Source: a virus
Lineage: Duplodnaviria; Caudoviricetes
IMG/VR virus record: IMGVR_UViG_3300011266_000048
Location: 1 to 32,135 of that record
Length of the DNA: 32,135 nucleotides
Reading direction: 5' to 3' (one strand)
In this document: piece after piece, positions 2,972 to 28,401 of the stretch
Position numbering within the stretch: the first letter of the stretch is position 1
Layout of the letters: each line of letters begins with the position of its first letter
The notes under the pieces: model-generated
What the model was told of the DNA's origin: nothing
Seen by the model: the letters and a program-made list of their open reading frames with translations, nothing else
Database searches by the model: none
Position numbers and translations under genes: made by a program

Positions 2972-3202
2972 ATGACGTACGTGTGTGATACCAAAAGACA
3001 TCTTGTGTGCATCCCATATTCTCTTGACAATTTGCACAAGATGGCGTATTCTCTGGGTATAAATCGTTGTTGGTTTCATAAAGATCATTACGATATTCCG
3101 AAACGAAGAATTGATGAGATTATGTCTCACTGTGAAGTTGTTTGCAGTAAAGATATAGTAAAAATCATCAAAGGATCGTTATGGAAACTAAAAAATGGAT
3201 AG
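2972..3202 (+). CDS. DUF4031-like protein
   Basis: HLV...LDNLHKMAYSLGINRCWF..DHYDI pattern recognised from memory of the family. Confidence 0.6.
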   Translation: MTYVCDTKRHLVCIPYSLDNLHKMAYSLGINRCWFHKDHYDIPKRRIDEIMSHCEVVCSKDIVKIIKGSLWKLKNG

Positions 3203-3357
3203 TGAGATATGTCGCTTATAGTGGTGATATAAAATGGACAACTGTAGAAGCGGATGCAAACGCTGAGGAATGGGAAGTGATTTCCAAAGCATATGATGAA
3301 GAAGGTCTCTACAGTTCTGATAACATCATGAAAGTAATTGATGTTAGTTTGGATTAA
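3181..3357 (+). CDS. small hypothetical protein (58 aa)
   Basis: manual translation METKKWIVRY...DVSLD; fills the gap before the tRNA. Confidence 0.55.
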   Translation: METKKWIVRYVAYSGDIKWTTVEADANAEEWEVISKAYDEEGLYSSDNIMKVIDVSLD

Positions 3358-3362
3358 ACAAT

Positions 3363-3437
3363 CCGGAAATAGCTGAAATAGATTAGCGCCTCGCTGAAGA
3401 CGAGGAGATATTGGAGCGTTACCAATTTTCCGGACCA
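3363..3437 (+). tRNA. tRNA-Phe(GAA), non-canonical T-loop
   Basis: CCGGAAA/TTTCCGG, CCTCG-CTGAAGA-CGAGG, T-loop AGCGTTA, ACCA. Confidence 0.9.
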
Positions 3438-3440
3438 CTT

Positions 3441-3586
3441 TTGAGATAGACGTGTGTATGGTGGTGTAAACGGAGACGCACATTGCCTTTCGGCAAAGGT
3501 GTAGGTTCAATTCCTAACAATTACATAAGCACGGAACAAACAGTATTCATGTCAAGTTAACAACATGTTTCTGGTGAAATCCTCAA
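3441..3586 (+). ncRNA. scaffold family B RNA carrying an anticodon-less tRNA-like module
   Basis: TTGAGATAGAC...GGTGAAATCCTCAA ends; inside are a D-like arm, TTGCC-TTTC-GGCAA and TAGG-TTCAATT-CCTA. Confidence 0.65.
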
Positions 3587-3593
3587 TCATTTT

Positions 3594-3785
3594 ATGGATA
3601 ATCTTGGTAAGATAGTAGATGAACATGGATTAACACTTGAAGAAGAACTCTACTATGCTAACCATGCGCTCATTGACATATGTGATTGTTGTGGAAATTA
3701 CTTTTCTATTCAAAATCACCATGATGGAAGCAATTATTTGACATGGCATGGCAGCAAGCTTTATTGTCAAAAATGTATAATTTAA
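3594..3785 (+). CDS. small Cys-rich hypothetical protein
   Basis: ORF track; CDCC and CQKC motifs. Confidence 0.6.
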   Translation: MDNLGKIVDEHGLTLEEELYYANHALIDICDCCGNYFSIQNHHDGSNYLTWHGSKLYCQKCII

Positions 3786-3910
3786 GGTGCGTACAGCAAG
3801 AAAACAGCTATGAAGAACTCTGGGTCGGTGTGTGCAAATCCACCCCTCTCCACCAATTTGACGGAGAGGTAGCTCAGTAGCAGAGCAAGAGTATGCAAAA
3901 ACCGCACCTT
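3784..3910 (+). ncRNA. circularly permuted tRNA-Phe(GAA)-like module in scaffold family A
   Basis: 3' half (GAAGA-ACTCT, T-arm, CCTCTCC-A-CCA) precedes 5' half (GGAGAGG, D-arm, AGAGT); closed by AAGGTGCG/CGCACCTT. Confidence 0.85.
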
Positions 3911-4010
3911 GTTTTTGGATAATATATTCGTGGGTTAAGGGTTGAGTTTTTATCGATAAACGATAAGTTCCCAGTGAGGACGCTAATCAAACACCCACAC
4001 GATTTAATCA

Positions 4011-4086
4011 GTCCCTGTAGTGTAGTTGGCAGCACGGAAGACTTTCAATCTTCAGGACGTGGGTTCGAACCCCCGTGGGGACACCA
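4011..4086 (+). tRNA. tRNA-Glu(TTC)
   Basis: GAAGA-CTTTCAA-TCTTC, TTCGAAC T-loop, ACCA. Confidence 0.93.
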
Positions 4087-4091
4087 AATTT

Positions 4092-4304
4092 ATGGAATTG
4101 TACTTATCAGCTAAACGTGTAAATAGCATGTTGTCTAAATTGGCATTTGTAGCTGCAACTCAGTTGGATGGATTAAGTGGAAAAAATGTCGCAGCATATG
4201 TTCTTCAAATTATAAATGAAGATCGAGCAACTGCAAATTTAGGAAATGCAATTTATAAATATGAACAATTACAAAACGAAGTTTGTATTGATTTTCAGAT
4301 TTAA
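4092..4304 (+). CDS. hypothetical protein
   Basis: ORF track, first ATG after the tRNA. Confidence 0.55.
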   Translation: MELYLSAKRVNSMLSKLAFVAATQLDGLSGKNVAAYVLQIINEDRATANLGNAIYKYEQLQNEVCIDFQI

Positions 4305-4305
4305 T

Positions 4306-4374
4306 GCCGAAATAGTTTAATTGGAAAACGAGTGGTGACACTCAATGTTGGTTCATATCCAGCTTTCGGCTCCA
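4306..4374 (+). ncRNA. tRNA-like RNA with GNRA-capped anticodon stem
   Basis: GCCGAAA/TTTCGGC-T-CCA, D-arm, GAGTG-GTGA-CACTC, GTTGG-TTCATAT-CCAGC. Confidence 0.8.
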
Positions 4375-4380
4375 ACAATT

Positions 4381-4516
4381 TAGATACGGACAGCAAGAAA
4401 ACCTCTTATGTCAAACCGCAGATGAAGGTGCAACTCCTTCCCTCGCCGCCAATGTATGGCGAGGTAGTTTAATAGCCAGAACGTCGGTCCCGAAAGGGAA
4501 GAAAAAACCGTATCTA
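4381..4516 (+). ncRNA. circularly permuted tRNA-Asp(GTC)-like module in scaffold family A
   Basis: GTCAA-ACCGC, T-arm, CCTCGCC-G-CCA, linker, GGCGAGG, D-arm, TCGGT; closed by TAGATACGG/CCGTATCTA. Confidence 0.85.
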
Positions 4517-4521
4517 GTTTT

Positions 4522-4597
4522 GCATTCGTAACTCAATTGGTAGAGTATCTGGCTTTTAACCAGAGAGTTATGGGTTCGAGTCCCCTCGGATGCACCA
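4522..4597 (+). tRNA. tRNA-Lys(TTT)
   Basis: TCTGG-CTTTTAA-CCAGA, TTCGAGT, ACCA. Confidence 0.95.
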
Positions 4598-4603
4598 ATT
4601 TAT

Positions 4604-4704
4604 GAGAGAAATGGTGTAATGGTTTGCACATCAAGTCCGAGCCACGATTAACTCGTGAAGTAGGCAACCAAATGGAAGGTTAAGGTTCAATTCCTTGTTC
4701 TCTC
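4604..4704 (+). ncRNA. tRNA-like RNA with replaced anticodon arm (no CCA)
   Basis: GAGAGAA/TTCTCTC, GTGT/GCAC D-arm, TAAGG-TTCAATT-CCTTG, about 50-nt insert. Confidence 0.6.
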
Positions 4705-4707
4705 TAT

Positions 4708-4841
4708 GGGGTCTGTGACGGAATGGCAGACGTGGAGGTCAGTAGGTGGCACTCTATGCTATACCGAAAACCACCGGACAACGAACGTAATAGAGACGTT
4801 GAGATTGTTCTTGTAGGTTCAAGTCCTATCAAGCCCCACCA
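4708..4841 (+). ncRNA. expanded tRNA-like RNA
   Basis: GGGG.../...CCCC-A-CCA, class II-type D-arm, GTAGG-TTCAAGT-CCTAT, two large internal stems. Confidence 0.65.
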
Positions 4842-4849
4842 ATTTAGAT

Positions 4850-4975
4850 GCCACTTATGGTGTAGGGTTCAATTCCCTCATGCTCCATCATTACGGGGCA
4901 CTCTGGTTGAGATGAAAACCTACGGATGACACAGTTTGACTTCTGTATCGGGTTCGACTCCCGAAAGTGGCTCCA
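4850..4975 (+). ncRNA. double tRNA-like RNA (permuted module nested in an outer acceptor/T-arm)
   Basis: outer GCCACTT/AAGTGGC-T-CCA and TCGGG-TTCGACT-CCCGA; inner AGGG-TTCAATT-CCCT, TGCTCC/GGGGCA, GGTT/AACC. Confidence 0.65.
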
Positions 4976-4978
4976 ATT

Positions 4979-5083
4979 TAGATGCCCGTTTCTACAGCAA
5001 TTCCTAAAAGGATAAAGAGAAGCACTCGTAATGCATCCCCAGATGGTTCAAATCCATCACCCTCGAAAGAGGTTGGGCATCTA
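4979..5083 (+). ncRNA. scaffold family A RNA carrying anticodon-arm and T-arm fragments
   Basis: TAGATGCCC/GGGCATCTA stem, TACAGCAA, GCA-CTCGTAA-TGC, GATGG-TTCAAAT-CCATC. Confidence 0.7.
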
Positions 5084-5089
5084 GCTTTT

Positions 5090-5173
5090 GCTACTGTGGC
5101 GTAATGGAAGCCGCAACAGTTTGAGAGACTGTCGCCGTAAGGCGTGCTGGTTCGAGTCCAGTCAGTAGCACCA
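5090..5173 (+). tRNA. tRNA-Leu(GAG)
   Basis: ACAGT-TTGAGAG-ACTGT, variable arm CGCC-GTAA-GGCG, ACCA. Confidence 0.95.
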
Positions 5174-5177
5174 ATTT

Positions 5178-5337
5178 CGGGCGTTAGCCTAGTCTAAGGC
5201 GGCATGGTTTCAAAAAACGCTAGTTATGAAACTCCTACCCCGTAAGGGATGGTAATGAGTGTGCGACGAGACGTTCTGAAAACTATAGTAAAGTAAGAAC
5301 GATGTCAACAATAGGGAGAACCTATTACGCCCGACCA
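5178..5337 (+). ncRNA. expanded tRNA-like RNA with Pro-type acceptor
   Basis: CGGGCGT/ACGCCCG-A-CCA, GCCT/AGGC D-arm, about 105-nt structured centre. Confidence 0.7.
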
Positions 5338-5341
5338 TTTT

Positions 5342-5509
5342 ATGAAACATGCAACGGTCAAAATTGACAATATGGAAATTCCATTGATTGGAATTCCAAA
5401 AGAAAGTGTCAATGAAATCTGTGACCATTGTCATAAATCATTTCACATTCAGGATATAGTCTTGACAGATACCCACTTCTTATGTAAGAATTGTCAAGAT
5501 GAAAAGTGA
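5342..5509 (+). CDS. small Zn-finger-like protein (55 aa)
   Basis: manual translation; CDHC and CKNC. Confidence 0.55.
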   Translation: MKHATVKIDNMEIPLIGIPKESVNEICDHCHKSFHIQDIVLTDTHFLCKNCQDEK

Positions 5510-6282: not shown

Positions 6283-6840
6283 ATGAATGTTCATGATAAT
6301 CTAAAATCATCATCTGTAGCAGAAATCAAAGATTTCTATAACAAGAATTCTATTGATGCTGCAATAGGAATGACACACATTCAAGGTGATTTTAACCTTG
6401 GAAATGTCATTCGCTCTGCCAATTTTTTTGGTTTTAAGGAAGTTTTTTACATTGGTGGAAAGAAAGGATATGATCGGCGATCTTGTGTTGGGACACATAA
6501 TTACATTCCCGTTAATTTCATCAAAACCGAAGAAGATTTCCTTAAAGAAATTGAAAATAGATATACTTTAATCTGCGTTGAGAACAATATTCCAAGATAT
6601 GAATGGAAGATGATTTCGATTTTCGTAGCAAATCCATTCATCAATGGCGCAATAAAGTTTATACATCCACCGTTGTTTCTATTTGGAGAAGAACAACTTG
6701 GAATTTCGGAACGTTTGTTGGAAGCGTCTACATATATTCTTACAATTCCGGCATTCGGTTCAGTACGTTCTATGAATGTAGGTTCATGTGCCGCAGTTGT
6801 TATGGCAATGTATCGGCAATCAATTCAGGATATAGCGTAA
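6283..6840 (+). CDS. SpoU/TrmH-family RNA 2'-O-methyltransferase
   Basis: NLGNVIRSA, FGEEQLGIS, IPAFGSVRSMNVGS motifs. Confidence 0.9.
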   Translation: MNVHDNLKSSSVAEIKDFYNKNSIDAAIGMTHIQGDFNLGNVIRSANFFGFKEVFYIGGKKGYDRRSCVGTHNYIPVNFIKTEEDFLKEIENRYTLICVENNIPRYEWKMISIFVANPFINGAIKFIHPPLFLFGEEQLGISERLLEASTYILTIPAFGSVRSMNVGSCAAVVMAMYRQSIQDIA

Positions 6841-11286: not shown

Positions 11287-12597
11287 GGGAGCAGAAAACC
11301 CCTCTGCTTTAGCGGAGGGGATGAATGCGACCCACAAAAATAGTTCATCATTTTGAGAAAGTGTGTAATATGTATGTTGTAGAATGTATAATCGTGCCTA
11401 CAAATATAGAATATACCCCAACAAGGGACAGGAAGTTCTATTGTCCAAACATTTTGGACATTGTAGGTTCATCTATAATCACTTTCTTGCCATAAAGATT
11501 AAACATTACAAGGAAACCAAGAAAACATTGAACTGGCAGGATATGGCAACTGAACTTCCAAAATTGAAGGATGAATATGAATGGTTGAGTGAGATTGGAA
11601 GTCAATCTCTCCAACAATCCATTCTCAATTTGGACCGAGCATACACTGCCTTCTTTCGTTCTGGTTCTGGATTTCCCAAGTTCAAGTCAAAAAAGTATGC
11701 TCGTAAGTCATTCATTGTTCCAATGACGAACAACAACATTAAGTTGAACTACGACACGAAACGATTGGTCATTCCAAAGTTTCGTAGCGGGATAAAGTGT
11801 GTCTTTGACCGACAGGCAGAAGGAACGATTAAGCAAGCAATCGTATCACAAGACAGAGATGGAAAATACTATGTCTCCATTTTGGTAGAAGTGGACAAGG
11901 AATTGCCGAAGAAACCAACACCAAAGAGAGACAAGGCAATCGGAATAGATTTTGGAGTCAAAACATTCTTAACACTTAACGATGGAACAAAGATTGAGAA
12001 CCCGAAAGTATTGAAACAATCTGCCAATAAGTTAGCGAAACACCAGCAAGATTTAGAGACATTAACCAAAGGTTCCACTGCTCACATAAGCAAGCAAGAG
12101 CAGATAACGAAACTCCATAGTAAAATAGCAAGACAACGAAAAGATTTCTTGGATAAACTCTCATACAAACTAACTCACGATAACCAAGTGAATAATACGA
12201 TTTGTATTGAGGATTTGTCCATAAAAAACATGCAAACGGACAATTACAAAGCAACTAACAATCGGATTGCCGATTATGCTTGGGGAAAGTTCGTTAATAT
12301 GTTGCAATATAAGAGTGATTGGTATGGCAAGAACTTTCTTAAAATAGGAAGATTTGAACCATCCAGTAAAATGTGTTCCGAATGTGGATATGTAAATCAT
12401 TTTCTTACATTAGATGATAGAGAATGGAATTGCCCCATTTGTAACACAAATCACGATAGAGATATGAATGCGGCGAAGAATATCGTGGACTTTGCATTTC
12501 CGAAAACACAGTTTAATAAGGGTAGGAACTACCCTATAGAAACTCACAACTATTGTTTGGTGGGAAACCCACCTGCTTTAGCGGGTGGGTAGTTCAT
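11287..12597 (+). mobile_element. IS200/IS605-family tnpB-only element
   Basis: TTGAT at 11282-11286; near-identical subterminal hairpins 11299-11320 and 12568-12589; right end GTAGTTCAT. Confidence 0.85.
11384..12592 (+). CDS. tnpB: TnpB RNA-guided nuclease
   Basis: RAYKYRIYP N-terminus, RuvC GIDFG / IEDL / HDRDMNAA, CSECG..CPIC finger. Confidence 0.95.
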   Translation: MYNRAYKYRIYPNKGQEVLLSKHFGHCRFIYNHFLAIKIKHYKETKKTLNWQDMATELPKLKDEYEWLSEIGSQSLQQSILNLDRAYTAFFRSGSGFPKFKSKKYARKSFIVPMTNNNIKLNYDTKRLVIPKFRSGIKCVFDRQAEGTIKQAIVSQDRDGKYYVSILVEVDKELPKKPTPKRDKAIGIDFGVKTFLTLNDGTKIENPKVLKQSANKLAKHQQDLETLTKGSTAHISKQEQITKLHSKIARQRKDFLDKLSYKLTHDNQVNNTICIEDLSIKNMQTDNYKATNNRIADYAWGKFVNMLQYKSDWYGKNFLKIGRFEPSSKMCSECGYVNHFLTLDDREWNCPICNTNHDRDMNAAKNIVDFAFPKTQFNKGRNYPIETHNYCLVGNPPALAGG

Positions 12598-13411: not shown

Positions 13412-13415
13412 TTTT

Positions 13416-13786
13416 GTCAGTAAGCGGTAGGCATAGAAGCTGCCAGATACGAAAGTATCCGTCAACCTTATGGTTGATGCCGATAATGAGTGACGAACGG
13501 AAAAAAGTAGGAGTGTACAACCGAAATTAAGCGTGCTGAACAACCCGTGATAGTCAGCCGTAAAAACCGTGGGGAAAAAGCAACAGTTCCGGTAACGACA
13601 AGATGGTGAACGTACTAACGAAGAATTCTACTATCTTGCCCGAGAAAGGCTGTAAAGCCATGATAATTGGTATGTTACGCTAGTACGAGAGGAATTCGTA
13701 ACTAAGTATCCGAGAGTAACGGTAGGGTAGGATTACAATGCCAGTTATCGCCCTTAGAGTCTTTGGCGTAAAAGCACATTACTGAT
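13416..13786 (+). ncRNA. large unclassified structured RNA (about 370 nt)
   Basis: closing stem GTCAGTAA/TTACTGAT, many hairpins, no + strand ORF. Confidence 0.65.
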
Positions 13787-13807
13787 ACTATTTGATAGCA
13801 GATTAAT

Positions 13808-20184: not shown

Positions 20185-20451
20185 ATGAAAACTGACTGGA
20201 GTACAATAATTAAAGAACGAAGTGGTAAAGTTTCAGCTACTCGTGTTGGATTTCTATTGACATTATTGGTGGTTTTGTTAAATTGGTCATGGATAAATTA
20301 CAACAAAAAAGTTGAAGTTTCTCCATTGCCAGAAAATGTTGTAGGTTTGGTAGTTGGATTGGCGGGTGCAAGAGTTGTACAACGGTATGGGGAAGCAAGA
20401 GAAAAATCAAATGATAATTCTCAAAATTCAACATCTCCTCCAACACAATAA
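20185..20451 (+). CDS. small two-TM membrane protein (holin-like)
   Basis: two hydrophobic segments after SATRV, charged C-tail. Confidence 0.5.
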   Translation: MKTDWSTIIKERSGKVSATRVGFLLTLLVVLLNWSWINYNKKVEVSPLPENVVGLVVGLAGARVVQRYGEAREKSNDNSQNSTSPPTQ

Positions 20452-20462
20452 GTTCTTTGATT

Positions 20463-20816
20463 TTTGTCAAAAGCGACTCTACGCTGATGGGCTTTACCGC
20501 CGTCATCTTTACCGATGACAAACATTAGAGGAAGTTCGATACACTAAAGCAGCCGCTTGGGAGAGTAAATGTTGTCTGGAGCATAGGACTGGTGAAAGTC
20601 CAGTTTATGAGAGATGGTTCACAAGTAATCAGGAAAACGTCCAGCGACTCCATCTTTACTCGCTAAAACCACAAGGTAAGTGCAACCCTAAATCGCCAAG
20701 AGTAGTGCTTCTCGTTATAAGGCAAAGGTTGGGGCAGCAGATTATAAAGATCTGCCGGTTATAAAACCGAGATAAATGTAGAGATAAAACTAAATATCGG
20801 CTATGGCTATGACAAA
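20463..20816 (+). ncRNA. rnpB: RNase P RNA-like
   Basis: P1 TTTGTCA/TGACAAA; P4 GAGGAAGTTCGATA pairing with TATCGGCT (bulged U); AGATAAATG near 3' end; about 350 nt. Confidence 0.8.
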
Positions 20817-20909
20817 TTTTTAGATGGGTGCCCGATTGGAATATTCCTTAAGGGCTTGGGCGCAAGTGCCGCATCCCTGTGAAATAATATGCACTACTCA
20901 TCTTTTTAT

Positions 20910-20972
20910 GCCCGTGGTCGGATAGGGTTGCCATGATTTCCTCCGATGCATTTAAGTGACACATGGGCACCA
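20910..20972 (+). ncRNA. short tRNA-like hairpin ending ACCA
   Basis: GCCCGTG/CATGGGC-A-CCA, no canonical D, T or anticodon arms. Confidence 0.45.
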
Positions 20973-20974
20973 AT

Positions 20975-21048
20975 GGGGCTGTCGTTCAACGGTAGGACAG
21001 TTCATTCGCACTGAACAGATAAGGGTTCAATTCCCTTTAGCTCCACCA
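20975..21048 (+). tRNA. tRNA-Ala(CGC)
   Basis: G3-U70, GTTCA-TTCGCAC-TGAAC, ACCA. Confidence 0.93.
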
Positions 21049-25141: not shown

Positions 25142-25144
25142 CTC

Positions 25145-25175
25145 TTGACATTTTCGGTGGGTCTGATATATGTAT
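25145..25175 (+). promoter_or_regulatory. TTGACA box plus ATATGTAT motif upstream of second RNA cluster
   Basis: TTGACA 25145-25150; ATATGTAT 25168-25175. Confidence 0.55.
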
Positions 25176-25201
25176 AAGCAGAATTTTATTGTTCTTTGAA
25201 T

Positions 25202-25284
25202 TGCGGGTGAGTGAAACGGATACAAAAATCATTCCTGTCTCATAAGCAGGCGATACTGGGTTCGACTCCCAAGACACGCAACCA
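25202..25284 (+). tRNA. tRNA-Met(CAT), enlarged D-loop
   Basis: CCTGT-CTCATAA-GCAGG, TTCGACT, ACCA; Met versus fMet/Ile2 not resolved. Confidence 0.8.
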
Positions 25285-25412
25285 AATTTTGACTCTACAC
25301 TTGTGACCGGTAAAACGGTGTAAAAGGAAGTCGGAGTGCAGAAAATATGAATTAATCCCTTTAACAGCTTAACGACTTATGGCGGGGGCAATCATATTTC
25401 GGAGTCAAATTA

Positions 25413-25510
25413 TAGATGCATACTGCAACAATAAAGAATGCCCCCACGGGGCAACCTAGTGATGGAACCACATAAAAAGTTTCCAGAGTAAACTGTAAAA
25501 TCAGCATCTA
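25413..25510 (+). ncRNA. scaffold family A RNA with hairpin cargo
   Basis: TAGATGC/GCATCTA stem, TACTGCAA variant motif, TGCCCC/GGGGCA hairpin. Confidence 0.6.
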
Positions 25511-25584
25511 GCTATTAACAAATCTCGGACGCTTCGTTATAGCGCACCAGTCGAGATGCTCGTGGGAAGGTGACTTCCCACATT

Positions 25585-25659
25585 GGGGCCATCTGTATAA
25601 CGGTAATACGGTAGCTTTGCAAGCTACAAATCGGAGTTCAACTCTCCGTGGCTCCACCA
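25585..25659 (+). tRNA. tRNA-Ala(TGC)
   Basis: G3-U70, GTAGC-TTTGCAA-GCTAC, ACCA. Confidence 0.93.
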
Positions 25660-25741
25660 ATTTAACTTGCAGTCGTTTCTGCATCGTGAATGTATGAGTT
25701 CGGAACGATGTGTATTCGCCTCATACCTGCAAAGTTATTTT

Positions 25742-25939
25742 GTTCGGTTGTTTCAAAGGAAACGCAACACATATAAAGTCAATTGAGTTGTAGCCAGTCG
25801 CAAGACACAAGCCAACACAAGCCTGAAACGAACTGTTAAGGTTGACCAATTGACCGTGACAGTAGTTACGTGAGCGTTTGTATCCGAAGAAATTGAACGG
25901 ATTATGAAACTATGGGTTGAATTCCCAAACAGAACACCA
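25742..25939 (+). ncRNA. tRNA-like (acceptor + T-arm + CCA) RNA with large structured body
   Basis: GTTC..GTT/AAC..GAAC-A-CCA, TGGG-TTGAATT-CCCA, nested GTTTCA/TGAAAC, AAACGC/GCGTTT, GTCAATTG/CAATTGAC. Confidence 0.7.
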
Positions 25940-25942
25940 ATT

Positions 25943-26121
25943 TATACAACCGAACCGTGACGAACACGGGTCGAAGCAACTAAGAGCAGGTCGCCAAGTC
26001 TTCGCAAGGAACCAATTGCTGTTGATCACCCGGAAGATACTCGTGACCGTTCCCGACTGCTGGTTGTGACTGGAAATTAGCTATTTCCTTTATTAGCAGA
26101 GAAAGTCGGGCGGTTTGTATA
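25943..26121 (+). ncRNA. unclassified structured RNA
   Basis: closing stem TATACAACCG/CGGTTTGTATA; CCCGACT/AGTCGGG and other hairpins. Confidence 0.6.
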
Positions 26122-26124
26122 TGT

Positions 26125-26200
26125 GGGGCCGTAGCTCATTTGGTAGAGCGTCTCAATGGCATTGAGAAGGTAAGGGGTTTAACTCCCCTCGGCTCCACCA
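26125..26200 (+). tRNA. tRNA-Ala(GGC)
   Basis: G3-U70, TCTCA-ATGGCAT-TGAGA, ACCA. Confidence 0.95.
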
Positions 26201-26282
26201 GTTTTATTATAACCAACGATTATTTGGATTAATAAGTTGATATTTATATTATGTCAACCAAACCCCAAACAAAGGAGAATAT

Positions 26283-26411
26283 ATGATCGTTGGTTTGATT
26301 ATTGGTGCAGTAGCAGGCTTCGTTGGTGGTGTCCTTTTTGGTCGCCGAAACAAGAAAAAAGTAGAAGCTGTTATTGCAGGTGCTAAGAAACTTAGCGGTG
26401 GAAAACTGTAA
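26283..26411 (+). CDS. small single-TM protein (42 aa)
   Basis: AAGGAG upstream; MIVGLIIGAVAGFVGGVLFG followed by basic tail. Confidence 0.7.
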   Translation: MIVGLIIGAVAGFVGGVLFGRRNKKKVEAVIAGAKKLSGGKL

Positions 26412-26475
26412 CAATTAACCCCGCAAAGGAGAGTATTCTTTGCTTGATGCCCCGGTAAAACGGGGCATCTCTGAT

Positions 26476-26549
26476 TGGAGTTTGGTGTAGCGGAAGCACG
26501 TTTGGTTCTGACCCAAAAAGTAAGGGTTCGACTCCTTTAACTCCAGCCA
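26476..26549 (+). tRNA. tRNA-Gln(CTG)
   Basis: TTTGG-TTCTGAC-CCAAA, TGGAGTT/AACTCCA, GCCA. Confidence 0.95.
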
Positions 26550-26561
26550 ATTTTAGTTCTT

Positions 26562-26723
26562 TGACGTAATTGTGAATGATTAATTCCCCGTAGTATTGGA
26601 TACATGGGGCGAATACGAGAAATAAGTAGGCATTTAAGTTGTGCTGAAGATCGTAACAGGAGGCTACAACCTAAAGAGTAGCTTTGCGAGGACAGCAAGA
26701 TGTGTCCGGCAACAATTACGTCA
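26562..26723 (+). ncRNA. unclassified structured RNA
   Basis: perfect 12-bp closing stem TGACGTAATTGT/ACAATTACGTCA with internal hairpins. Confidence 0.65.
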
Positions 26724-26726
26724 TAT

Positions 26727-26812
26727 GGAAGGTTAAGTGAGTGAGACTCACCATCGCTTGGAAAGCGATTGGCACTGAAAAGTGTGAGAGGCGGGATCTC
26801 AACCTTCCGCCA
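26727..26812 (+). tRNA. tRNA-Ser(GGA), non-canonical T-loop
   Basis: TCGC-TTGGAAA-GCGA, variable arm CACT/AGTG, T-loop GGCGGGA, GCCA. Confidence 0.88.
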
Positions 26813-26896
26813 ATTTGCCTAGAAATAGGAAACTGAAAATGATCAACTCAGCAGCGGTGTGGTTCCCGAGTCGTTATACAAATATCGGTTACGGAT

Positions 26897-26986
26897 GGAA
26901 GGTAAACCAGTCAGGGTGCTGGAACTGCCTCGAAAACAGATTGTCCCTTAATTGTGGATGGGTTTCGATTACTCTGCCTTCCGCCA
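26897..26986 (+). tRNA. tRNA-Ser(CGA)
   Basis: loop CTCGAAA, long variable arm, GGAAGGT/GCCTTCC, GCCA; weak anticodon stem. Confidence 0.8.
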
Positions 26987-27204
26987 ATTTCTTACCTCAA
27001 AATCATATTATGTAAATATTCCCAGACTTCGTAGTATTCCCTTGCCATAAAAAGTTATATGATAAATCAGTCTTCCTCTATGTTTACATTGAAAAACGTA
27101 TTCCTTCAACATTCGGCACATGCATTTGATATGCAGCCAAGTGTGGTATACATTAAACTCACGTTGCATGGACTATAAATATTCTATTCAAAATCAAAAA
27201 GGTC

Positions 27205-27233
27205 TTGACAACAACTATGTTACTTGCTAAGGT
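27205..27233 (+). promoter_or_regulatory. sigma70-like promoter (leaderless)
   Basis: TTGACA-N17-TAAGGT with TG extension, 6 nt before ATG 27240. Confidence 0.6.
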
Positions 27234-27239
27234 GTTCGT

Positions 27240-28401
27240 ATGAATTTGAGTGGAATTTGGACATTTATCGGAGTAATAGTATTCATTGTAATTATTGCTC
27301 CATTACTAACAATTTGTGCATTGAACACATTGTTTAATTCCAATATTCCAATATCAATTGCTTCATGGTCTGCATCATTTTGGCTACTCATTCTTATTGC
27401 TGGAAAATTTTCAATCACTTCAAAAAAGTAATATGCCTACATACGAAATTGGAACTTGGTTTCTTCTATTGAGTATAATCTTACCTAGATTTACACTTTT
27501 ATTTTGGTGGTTGTGTGGAAATTTACCATATAATACGACTCCATTTATTGGAGATTTAGTTGCCTCTATTTTTGTTCCTCGTATTTTAATTCTTGTTTGG
27601 ATTTATAATTTACAGGGATTTTCTACATGGTTTTGGATACATTTAGTAGCTTTAATTTTAGTGTGGGGATTGAATATTTTGCGTGTAACTTCAAAAAATA
27701 GCGATTAATTATGCCAAGTAAATTTGAAAAATGGTGGGAAAATACTGGATATGATGAAGCTAAAAAATTGGATATTTTGAATGATCCAGTTGAAATTGCT
27801 AGATTAGCATATAAGGCAGGATTGTATACCTCTCCATTTCCATTAACACCTATTGGAAAATCAACAGATTTTTATTTTAAATCTCATATGGTAAAATGTA
27901 ATTGTGGTTGTCAAACACTAGAAGTTGAACGCTATGATTATAAAGATGGAGACGAAGGTTTTAATATTGTAATTTGGAACCGTGGCCACGATGGAAATAA
28001 AATTCGTGGCTGGAAAGAAAAATTTCGATGGTGCTGGGACATCCTAACGACAGGCAAGCCATGGGCGGACAGCATTATCGCAACTAACAATGACGCCAAA
28101 GAGCTTGCCAATTTTATACTTCAAACTCTTCCAAAAGAAGACTCTCATGAAGAAACAAAAAAATAATAAAGATGCCGCACCTATTGCTTCACAGGTGGAA
28201 ACGGATAACAAAGAAGCAAAGTCTATTAAATTTGTAGTTGTTCGTGATGGCTACAGAGTATCCGAACGGGAATATGTAACTGAAGAAGATCCAGTTGCTA
28301 TTGCAGAAAAAGATTTTTGGACTCATATTGCTAAAACCCACTCTTACGGAGAACCGGTTGATATTGTGCAGTATGACTCTAAAAAACATCGGGTGTGGTA
28401 A
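27240..28401 (+). other. four hypothetical CDS (27240-27431 and 27433-27708 membrane proteins; 27711-28166; 28147-28401)
   Basis: ORF track; hydrophobic stretches in the first two. Confidence 0.65.

Follow-up and report, generated by a model that had tools for sequence, protein, structure and literature searches.

The stretch of DNA analysed here (the window) is a whole virus record of 32,135 bases, about 8% complete, from a large uncultured phage. It contains 25 tRNA genes, of which ARAGORN called 24 and Rfam the remaining one; every one of them lies on the + strand and has an encoded CCA. Genes for PhoH, a Dam-type methylase, HNH and LAGLIDADG proteins and SpoU are also present. An IS605-type TnpB/Cas12f-like gene (11384-12592) and the SpoU RNA methylase gene (6283-6840) are situated within the tRNA array, and three long non-coding stretches (3203-5498, 13412-13800 and 25142-27357) hold many CCA-ended or T-loop-bearing elements for which no tRNA was called.

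An RNase P-type RNA gene lies between a small ORF, which ends at 20451, and tRNA-Ala(CGC), which starts at 20975. The features of this region are listed in Table 1. A promoter scan returned five sites, against 4.3 expected, and no terminator. Of 105 members of the RNA family described below, 25 have the motif GTTCTTTGA ahead of P1, as compared with 27 of 8298 background windows (0.3%). The motif resembles the boxA antitermination signal, and it precedes RNA genes at window positions 20452, 25191 and 26556.

Table 1. Coordinates of the RNase P-type RNA, its elements and its neighbours in the window
Feature	Position	Strand	Basis or remark
GTTCTTTGA motif	20452..20460	+	immediately 5′ of P1
RNase P-type RNA gene, P1 to P1, 354 nt	20463..20816	+	family covariance model, 149.5 bits over 20459-20821; helices
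P1	20463-20469 with 20810-20816	+	7/7 pairs
P2 5′ strand	20477..20483	+	partner 20777-20783
P3, three-way junction with two CUUUACCG-loop hairpins	20484..20528	+	fold z -4.25
CR I and P4 5′ strand, bulged U	20528..20541 (P4, 20533-20541)	+	partner 20795-20802; free positions covary in family
P5 5′ strand and P6 5′ strand	20542..20551	+	P5 with 20679-20682; P6 pseudoknot with 20706-20710
Specificity-domain stub: P7/P10-like stem, GGGAG ... CGYUAA-ACC loop, private insert (20563-20661)	20552..20679	+	
CAA (A248 equivalent), P15, P16, P17, L15 GGUU (20727-20730)	20683..20734	+	GGUU, predicted CCA-pairing site
Extra hairpin 3′ of P15 (20737-20755), then P18 (20756-20769)	20737..20769	+	
CR IV (AGATAAATG), P2 3′ strand, J2/4, P4 3′ strand	20770..20802	+	
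Companion pseudoknot RNA, ~85 nt	20822..20903	+	closing stem, branched hairpin, hairpin loop pairing with GCAC beside the closing strand
Small stem-closed element, ACCA end, tRNA-like ends	20909..20972	+	sequence, fold; no ARAGORN or Rfam call
tRNA-Ala(CGC)	20975..21048	+	commonest next tRNA after family members (16/33)

Anatomy and family of the RNase P-type RNA

It is apparent that the catalytic domain is complete in the window RNA. P1 to P6, both pseudoknots, the bulged U, the CAA, the GGU loop and P15 to P18 were all located. The original prediction, made from the sequence, had placed P1 and P4 here with compensatory changes, and both helices were found where it had put them. Relative to P4 of E. 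coli rnpB (L201; AAGTCCGGG/CCCGGCTT), six of the eight pairs are changed, all eight still pair and the bulged U is kept. The same prediction had described the catalytic domain as divergent, which puts the novelty in the wrong place: the fold of that domain has been preserved, and it is the specificity domain that has been lost. Position numbers of the E. coli RNA other than U69, A232/233, A248 and 292-294 are used throughout as we take them to be.

A descriptor comprising seven of these elements was matched in full by the window RNA and by E. coli rnpB, and at most three elements were matched in any of 20,000 dinucleotide shuffles; this descriptor is post hoc, having been composed after both sequences had been seen. 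The folding energy of the whole window RNA is unremarkable (z -1.34). P3 is expanded, at 43 nt, in comparison with a family median of 19 nt. The CUUUACCG motif occurs in the window RNA only at 20492 and 20507. As a hairpin loop, it was observed at differing positions of the RNA across members, in P3 of one (L172) and in the stubs of two others (L178 and L134).

Relatives of the window RNA were sought with sequence patterns. A 3′ pattern in which three P4 positions were left free gave 60 viral matches, and the complementary P4 strand was found upstream of 55 of them, which counts as support because the query had not specified those positions. The complementary P4 strand likewise accompanied 80 of the 120 metagenome matches listed for the 3′ pattern, and 39 of the 120 matches listed for a 5′ pattern. 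Across 185,579 prokaryote genomes, the 3′ pattern matched 18 times, and none of the 18 was a member. Two earlier patterns were discarded: all ten matches of one were a coding look-alike, and most of the 119 matches of the other had arisen by chance.

From 132 unique cores, 16 chance pairings, one unparsed sequence, two rows of a single mis-anchored locus and six sequences lacking a P2 call were removed. The retained set consists of E. coli and 106 members, the window included; metagenome contigs in the set are presumed to be viral. The members fall into 95, 79 and 52 clusters at 90, 80 and 70% identity, respectively. Both pseudoknots, the bulged U, the CAA, the GGU, CR IV and J2/4 are kept across the 52 clusters. 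On the 5′ side of the bulged U, the adjoining nucleotide is G in E. coli but U in 105 of the 106 members, a uniformity partly fixed by the search patterns.

Pairing rates from the parser are inflated, as it chooses the best-pairing partners. A fairer test was provided by aligning 38 of the 48 short members with MAFFT, plainly and without fitting. In that alignment 84.5% of cells were paired, as against 62.1% when shuffled, and the covariation was 0.570, as against 0.176 when shuffled and 0.09-0.22 when slid. P2 (99.5%), P4 (99.3%) and P6 (92.6%) were the clearest, with P2, P4, P5 and P6 spanning 93-100%; P11, P15 and P17 paired at only 56-62%, owing in part to misregister of two subtypes.

A family covariance model was then built from the 38-member alignment, with the window left out. 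The window score given in Table 1 may be compared with at most 19.7 bits for the 18 prokaryote-genome loci, 115.4 bits for a copy in the cultured phage DLP6 and 170 bits for a 735-kb uncultured phage record. The DLP6 copy, at about 105774-106022 of KU682439.2, is unannotated and ends a few bases before a tRNA-Arg gene.

Relation to RNase P models

The Rfam RNase P models gave no match on the window RNA, nor on eight of eight loci, 18 of 20 loci and four of five genomes. RF00010 matched the DLP6 copy (54.7 bits, E 3.3e-17; one of the five genomes), and two of the 20 loci were matched, L250 by RF00010 (50.7 bits) and L439 by RF00373 (47.1 bits). These three relatives, at 47-55 bits and with E values from 1e-10 to 3e-17, are below the cut-off, which is 100 bits for RF00010 and is not reached by the window RNA either. 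Loss at the filter stage is real, since cmscan of the DLP6 stretch found nothing while the genome search gave 54.7 bits. RF00011 (bacterial type B, a class without P6) did not match the window, in which P6 is present; this helix covaries in the family. Scores in the opposite direction were -0.9 bits for the family covariance model against E. coli rnpB and 3.7 bits, within the range of shuffles, for the family HMM in nhmmer. Rfam matches to PsrR1 (20.3 bits) and ST7-OT4_3 (8.6 bits) on the window were attributed to chance, and a blastn search of GenBank phages with the window RNA as query returned only two short chance matches.

The original prediction had named the lack of a hit to the Infernal models, together with a lack of cleavage activity, as grounds for its rejection. 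No hit to the window was obtained, but rejection does not follow, as the models miss most members of the family. Three relatives do match them and the family model ties the window to those relatives, so the homology is transitive but strong. In addition, a single parser handles both E. coli rnpB and the phage RNAs in the same way. The alternative that this is an unrelated structured RNA merely resembling RNase P RNA would fit the lack of a direct profile match linking bacterial rnpB to either the window or the family model; it is largely refuted already by the three matches and by an order of elements and a double pseudoknot that are those of E. coli rnpB, and we give it almost no credence. 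Judged by its sequence, the window RNA is a real RNase P RNA homologue, phage-borne and reduced in its specificity (S) domain. The anatomy, the covariation and the Rfam matches on three relatives support the proposal of a phage-encoded RNase P RNA. The RNA is outside both RF00010 and archaeal type T by the features that define these classes.

The specificity-domain stub and the neighbouring RNAs

What chiefly sets the family apart is not its catalytic core but what its specificity domain has lost. P8, P9 and the CR II/CR III T-loops, which read the tRNA elbow, are absent from the family, and no CR II-like match was found in the window stub; loose CR II and CR III motifs occur together in four of the 106 members. 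The span from P5 to P5 is 40-237 nt in the members (median 61), 164 nt in E. coli and 133 nt in the window. This span comprises a P6 strand, a P7/P10-like stem and the conserved GGGAG ... CGYUAA-ACC loop, which encloses a single variable element; in the 85 of 106 members parsed, that element is 3-186 nt long. By eye, this loop aligns with P10 and the P11 bulged adenosines of the RF00010 consensus, and an A is present at the P11-like bulge in 71 of 87 members.

The near-normal length of the window stub is due to its insert, 97 nt, which has no relative among the loci compared (best E 0.91) and folds no better than shuffles (z -0.50). The nearest neighbour of the window in the tree has a span of only 58 nt (support 0.78). 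Together with the missing CR II match, these observations rule out a retained S-domain and point to secondary refilling. The stub tip would then be a tolerant site, refilled in the window phage by new sequence 97 nt long.

Other contents of the stub were observed. In one member (L229, 141-214), a tRNA-Asp(GTC) gene was called within it; in another (L170, about 3100-3260, minus strand), it holds an ORF of 48 codons, which carries two CxxC motifs and extends into the 3′ strand of P7. The GNRA loop of P18 is kept in 64 of 106 members, though P8, its usual receptor, is gone.

The private insert, a P18 without a GNRA loop and a private J2/4 variant (ACTAAA, one of 106 members) might indicate that the family is functional and the window copy is decaying. 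We consider this very unlikely, given that all of the core helices pair, that the window scores so highly against the family model and that other members carry inserts at the same site, over the range of lengths given above.

tRNA genes were found in the available flanks of 70 of the 106 members, and all 360 are on the same strand as the member. A tRNA starts within 300 nt of 33 of 89 members and within 40 nt of 17 of 89. The nucleotide at N-1 is U in 256 of the 334 unique tRNAs near members, as against a background of 36%; CCA and U at N-1 suit the phage CAA and GGU, and suit the host RNase P equally well. After the 65 tRNAs without an encoded CCA had been set aside, 269 remained, of which 235 have a canonical elbow, 20 have G55 and 261 keep C56. 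These counts cover tRNAs called by ARAGORN, whose preference for canonical tRNAs means that odd modules are under-counted. The window tRNAs with G55 (1525, 3363, 9034, 9430 and 11200) mostly have AG in the D-loop, and all five keep C56. In DLP6, 37 of 38 tRNAs keep GG in the D-loop and T55-C56. ARAGORN called those 38 in DLP6 92000-115000 (L462), for which 30 are annotated in the record.

The lost T-loop platform stacks on the G19:C56 pair (PMC12974513). As the AG/G55 tRNAs keep C56, odd elbows, as far as they occur among the called tRNAs, do not explain the family, and the suggestion that the RNA is adapted to non-canonical elbows was not upheld by the tRNA counts.

Directly downstream of the window RNA is the companion pseudoknot RNA. 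Copies were identified at 20822-20903 of the window and at L463, L464-L473, L481, L491, L496 and L507. By eye, its stems and the fourth pair of its pseudoknot covary in nine aligned copies. Of two companion patterns, one gave ten true matches out of ten and the other seven out of 47, several being redundant; these were judged by eye, and the remaining 40 were rejected as chance. An RNase P RNA lies upstream of 13 of the 17 matches and is adjacent in 12; for the remaining four, no more than about 320 nt of DNA was available upstream. Some copies have an ACCA end. Rfam gave no meaningful match to the companion RNA. It follows only about ten of the 106 members and is confined to one clade, so the synteny may reflect inheritance. 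The companion RNA is a candidate substrate and no more.

An active RNA specialised for poor host substrates, such as tRNAs with odd elbows, permuted modules and stem-plus-CCA RNAs like the companion, would be in keeping with the G55 tRNAs, with the several non-tRNA elements of the window that end in CCA and with the position of the companion. Such specialisation seems to us quite unlikely, as nearly all of the tRNAs keep C56, DLP6 carries the RNA despite its near-canonical elbows and so few members are followed by the companion.

Possible function and comparison with known RNase P RNAs

Four points are demonstrated, namely the anatomy, a family with covarying helices, a link by homology to the RNase P models, and the position and strand within tRNA arrays; from these we infer every step between fold and function. 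On this basis, the gene probably (at roughly 0.6) encodes a type-A-derived RNase P RNA which has kept its catalytic domain and lost its elbow module, and which, with host RnpA, would cut the 5′ leaders from phage pre-tRNAs. RnpA (PF00825) was not found in five IMG/VR carriers (four of them complete), in DLP6, in the 735-kb record or among the 40 window ORFs, which represent about 8% of that genome; it is only this absence of an RnpA gene from seven carriers that suggests use of the host protein.

To hold its substrates, the RNA would use the acceptor stem, pairing of CCA to the L15 GGU and A248 near N-1. The retained P7/P10/P11 bulge would perhaps hold the T stem, with no stacking on G19:C56. 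The role of the L15 GGU as CCA-pairing site is taken from PMC11143913, which also describes A232/A233 as part of the T-stem binding site. Cleavage of the next RNA in the transcript would, in addition, free the 3′ end of the ribozyme. According to PMC5839562, the E. coli catalytic (C) domain alone is active and needs P6 and P15-17, and removal of the S-domain costs the E. coli RNA about 500-fold on a model substrate. P6 and P15-17 are kept in the phage family.

The RNA might instead be an RNase P-derived decoy rather than a nuclease, binding host RnpA or CCA-ended RNAs and re-routing or shielding tRNA processing. The loss of the elbow module, the U beside the bulge, the lack of an RnpA gene in the carriers and canonical tRNAs that the host enzyme could process are all consistent with this idea. 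A decoy is unlikely, although it is the foremost of the alternatives: the conservation of both pseudoknots and of the catalytic motifs across the 52 clusters exceeds what protein binding would need by itself.

A broader proposal builds on a cleaving phage RNase P RNA, and is put forward tentatively, with our own doubts outweighing our confidence. Large phages would have an active RNase P ribozyme made up of the catalytic domain only, which captures host RnpA and cuts any RNA with an acceptor stem and CCA, blind to the elbow. If so, neither the tRNA arrays of the phage nor its other RNAs, for example the pseudoknot RNA next to the gene, would depend on the host enzyme during takeover, and the emptied S-domain would be an insertion site, occupied by 97 nt here and by a tRNA gene or small ORF elsewhere.

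Should the RNA prove active, the family (95 clusters at 90% identity) would be a large natural set of ribozymes without an elbow platform and would directly probe the importance of the S-domain in vivo. It resembles the stage of an accretion model that has P7/P10/P11 and no elbow module, as set out in PMC12974513. An RNA enzyme would also join the translation kit of large phages, its gene being missed by standard annotation. The DLP6 copy, being in a cultured phage, makes expression, knock-out and cleavage testable now.

No description of a virus- or phage-encoded RNase P RNA was found in the literature searched, which did not extend to subscription journals. The term 'RNase P' is absent from the main texts of a survey of huge phages (PMC7162821) and of a survey of viral structured RNAs (PMC10690425); part of the phage RNA could be represented within the 10,006 candidates that the latter leaves unnamed. 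The main text of the DLP6 paper (PMC5349666) has no passage on RNase P, and that of the P Finder paper (PMC7191817) does not contain the term 'phage'.

With bacterial type A (RF00010; E. coli rnpB), the phage RNA shares P1-P6, P15-P18, both pseudoknots and the bulged U of P4, as well as the CAA, L15 GGU, CR IV and CR V in the same order, and relatives score 50-55 bits against its model. It differs in being viral, in lacking P8, P9, P13, P14, CR II and CR III, in having one extra hairpin after P15 and in its six changed P4 pairs, and its scores are below the 100-bit cut-off. By the S-domain elements of type A (P8, P9, P12-P14, CR II and CR III), it falls outside that class.

Archaeal type T (RF02357) also lacks most of the S-domain. 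Type T RNAs have a P2 of 3 bp, a shortened P15 and a P5/P15 linker of 2 nt (PMC3579882), and are without P18 according to PMC5839562. In the phage RNA, by comparison, P2 is 6-7 bp, P15 is 4 bp, the linker is 3 nt and P18 is present. The RF02357 model matched neither the window nor any of five carriers, and the two reductions were probably independent.

Diverged RNase P RNAs of the CPR, as described in PMC8172020, likewise score below Rfam cut-offs and are missing S-domain helices, for example P12-P14. Those RNAs are cellular, and many have lost P16, P17, P18 or the GGU, which the phage family keeps. The engineered E. coli C-domain RNA described in PMC5839562 shares with the phage RNA a catalytic domain without an S-domain and a reliance on P6 and P15-17. 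That construct is artificial, whereas the phage RNA is natural and has retained a true P6 along with a P7/P10/P11-like stub.
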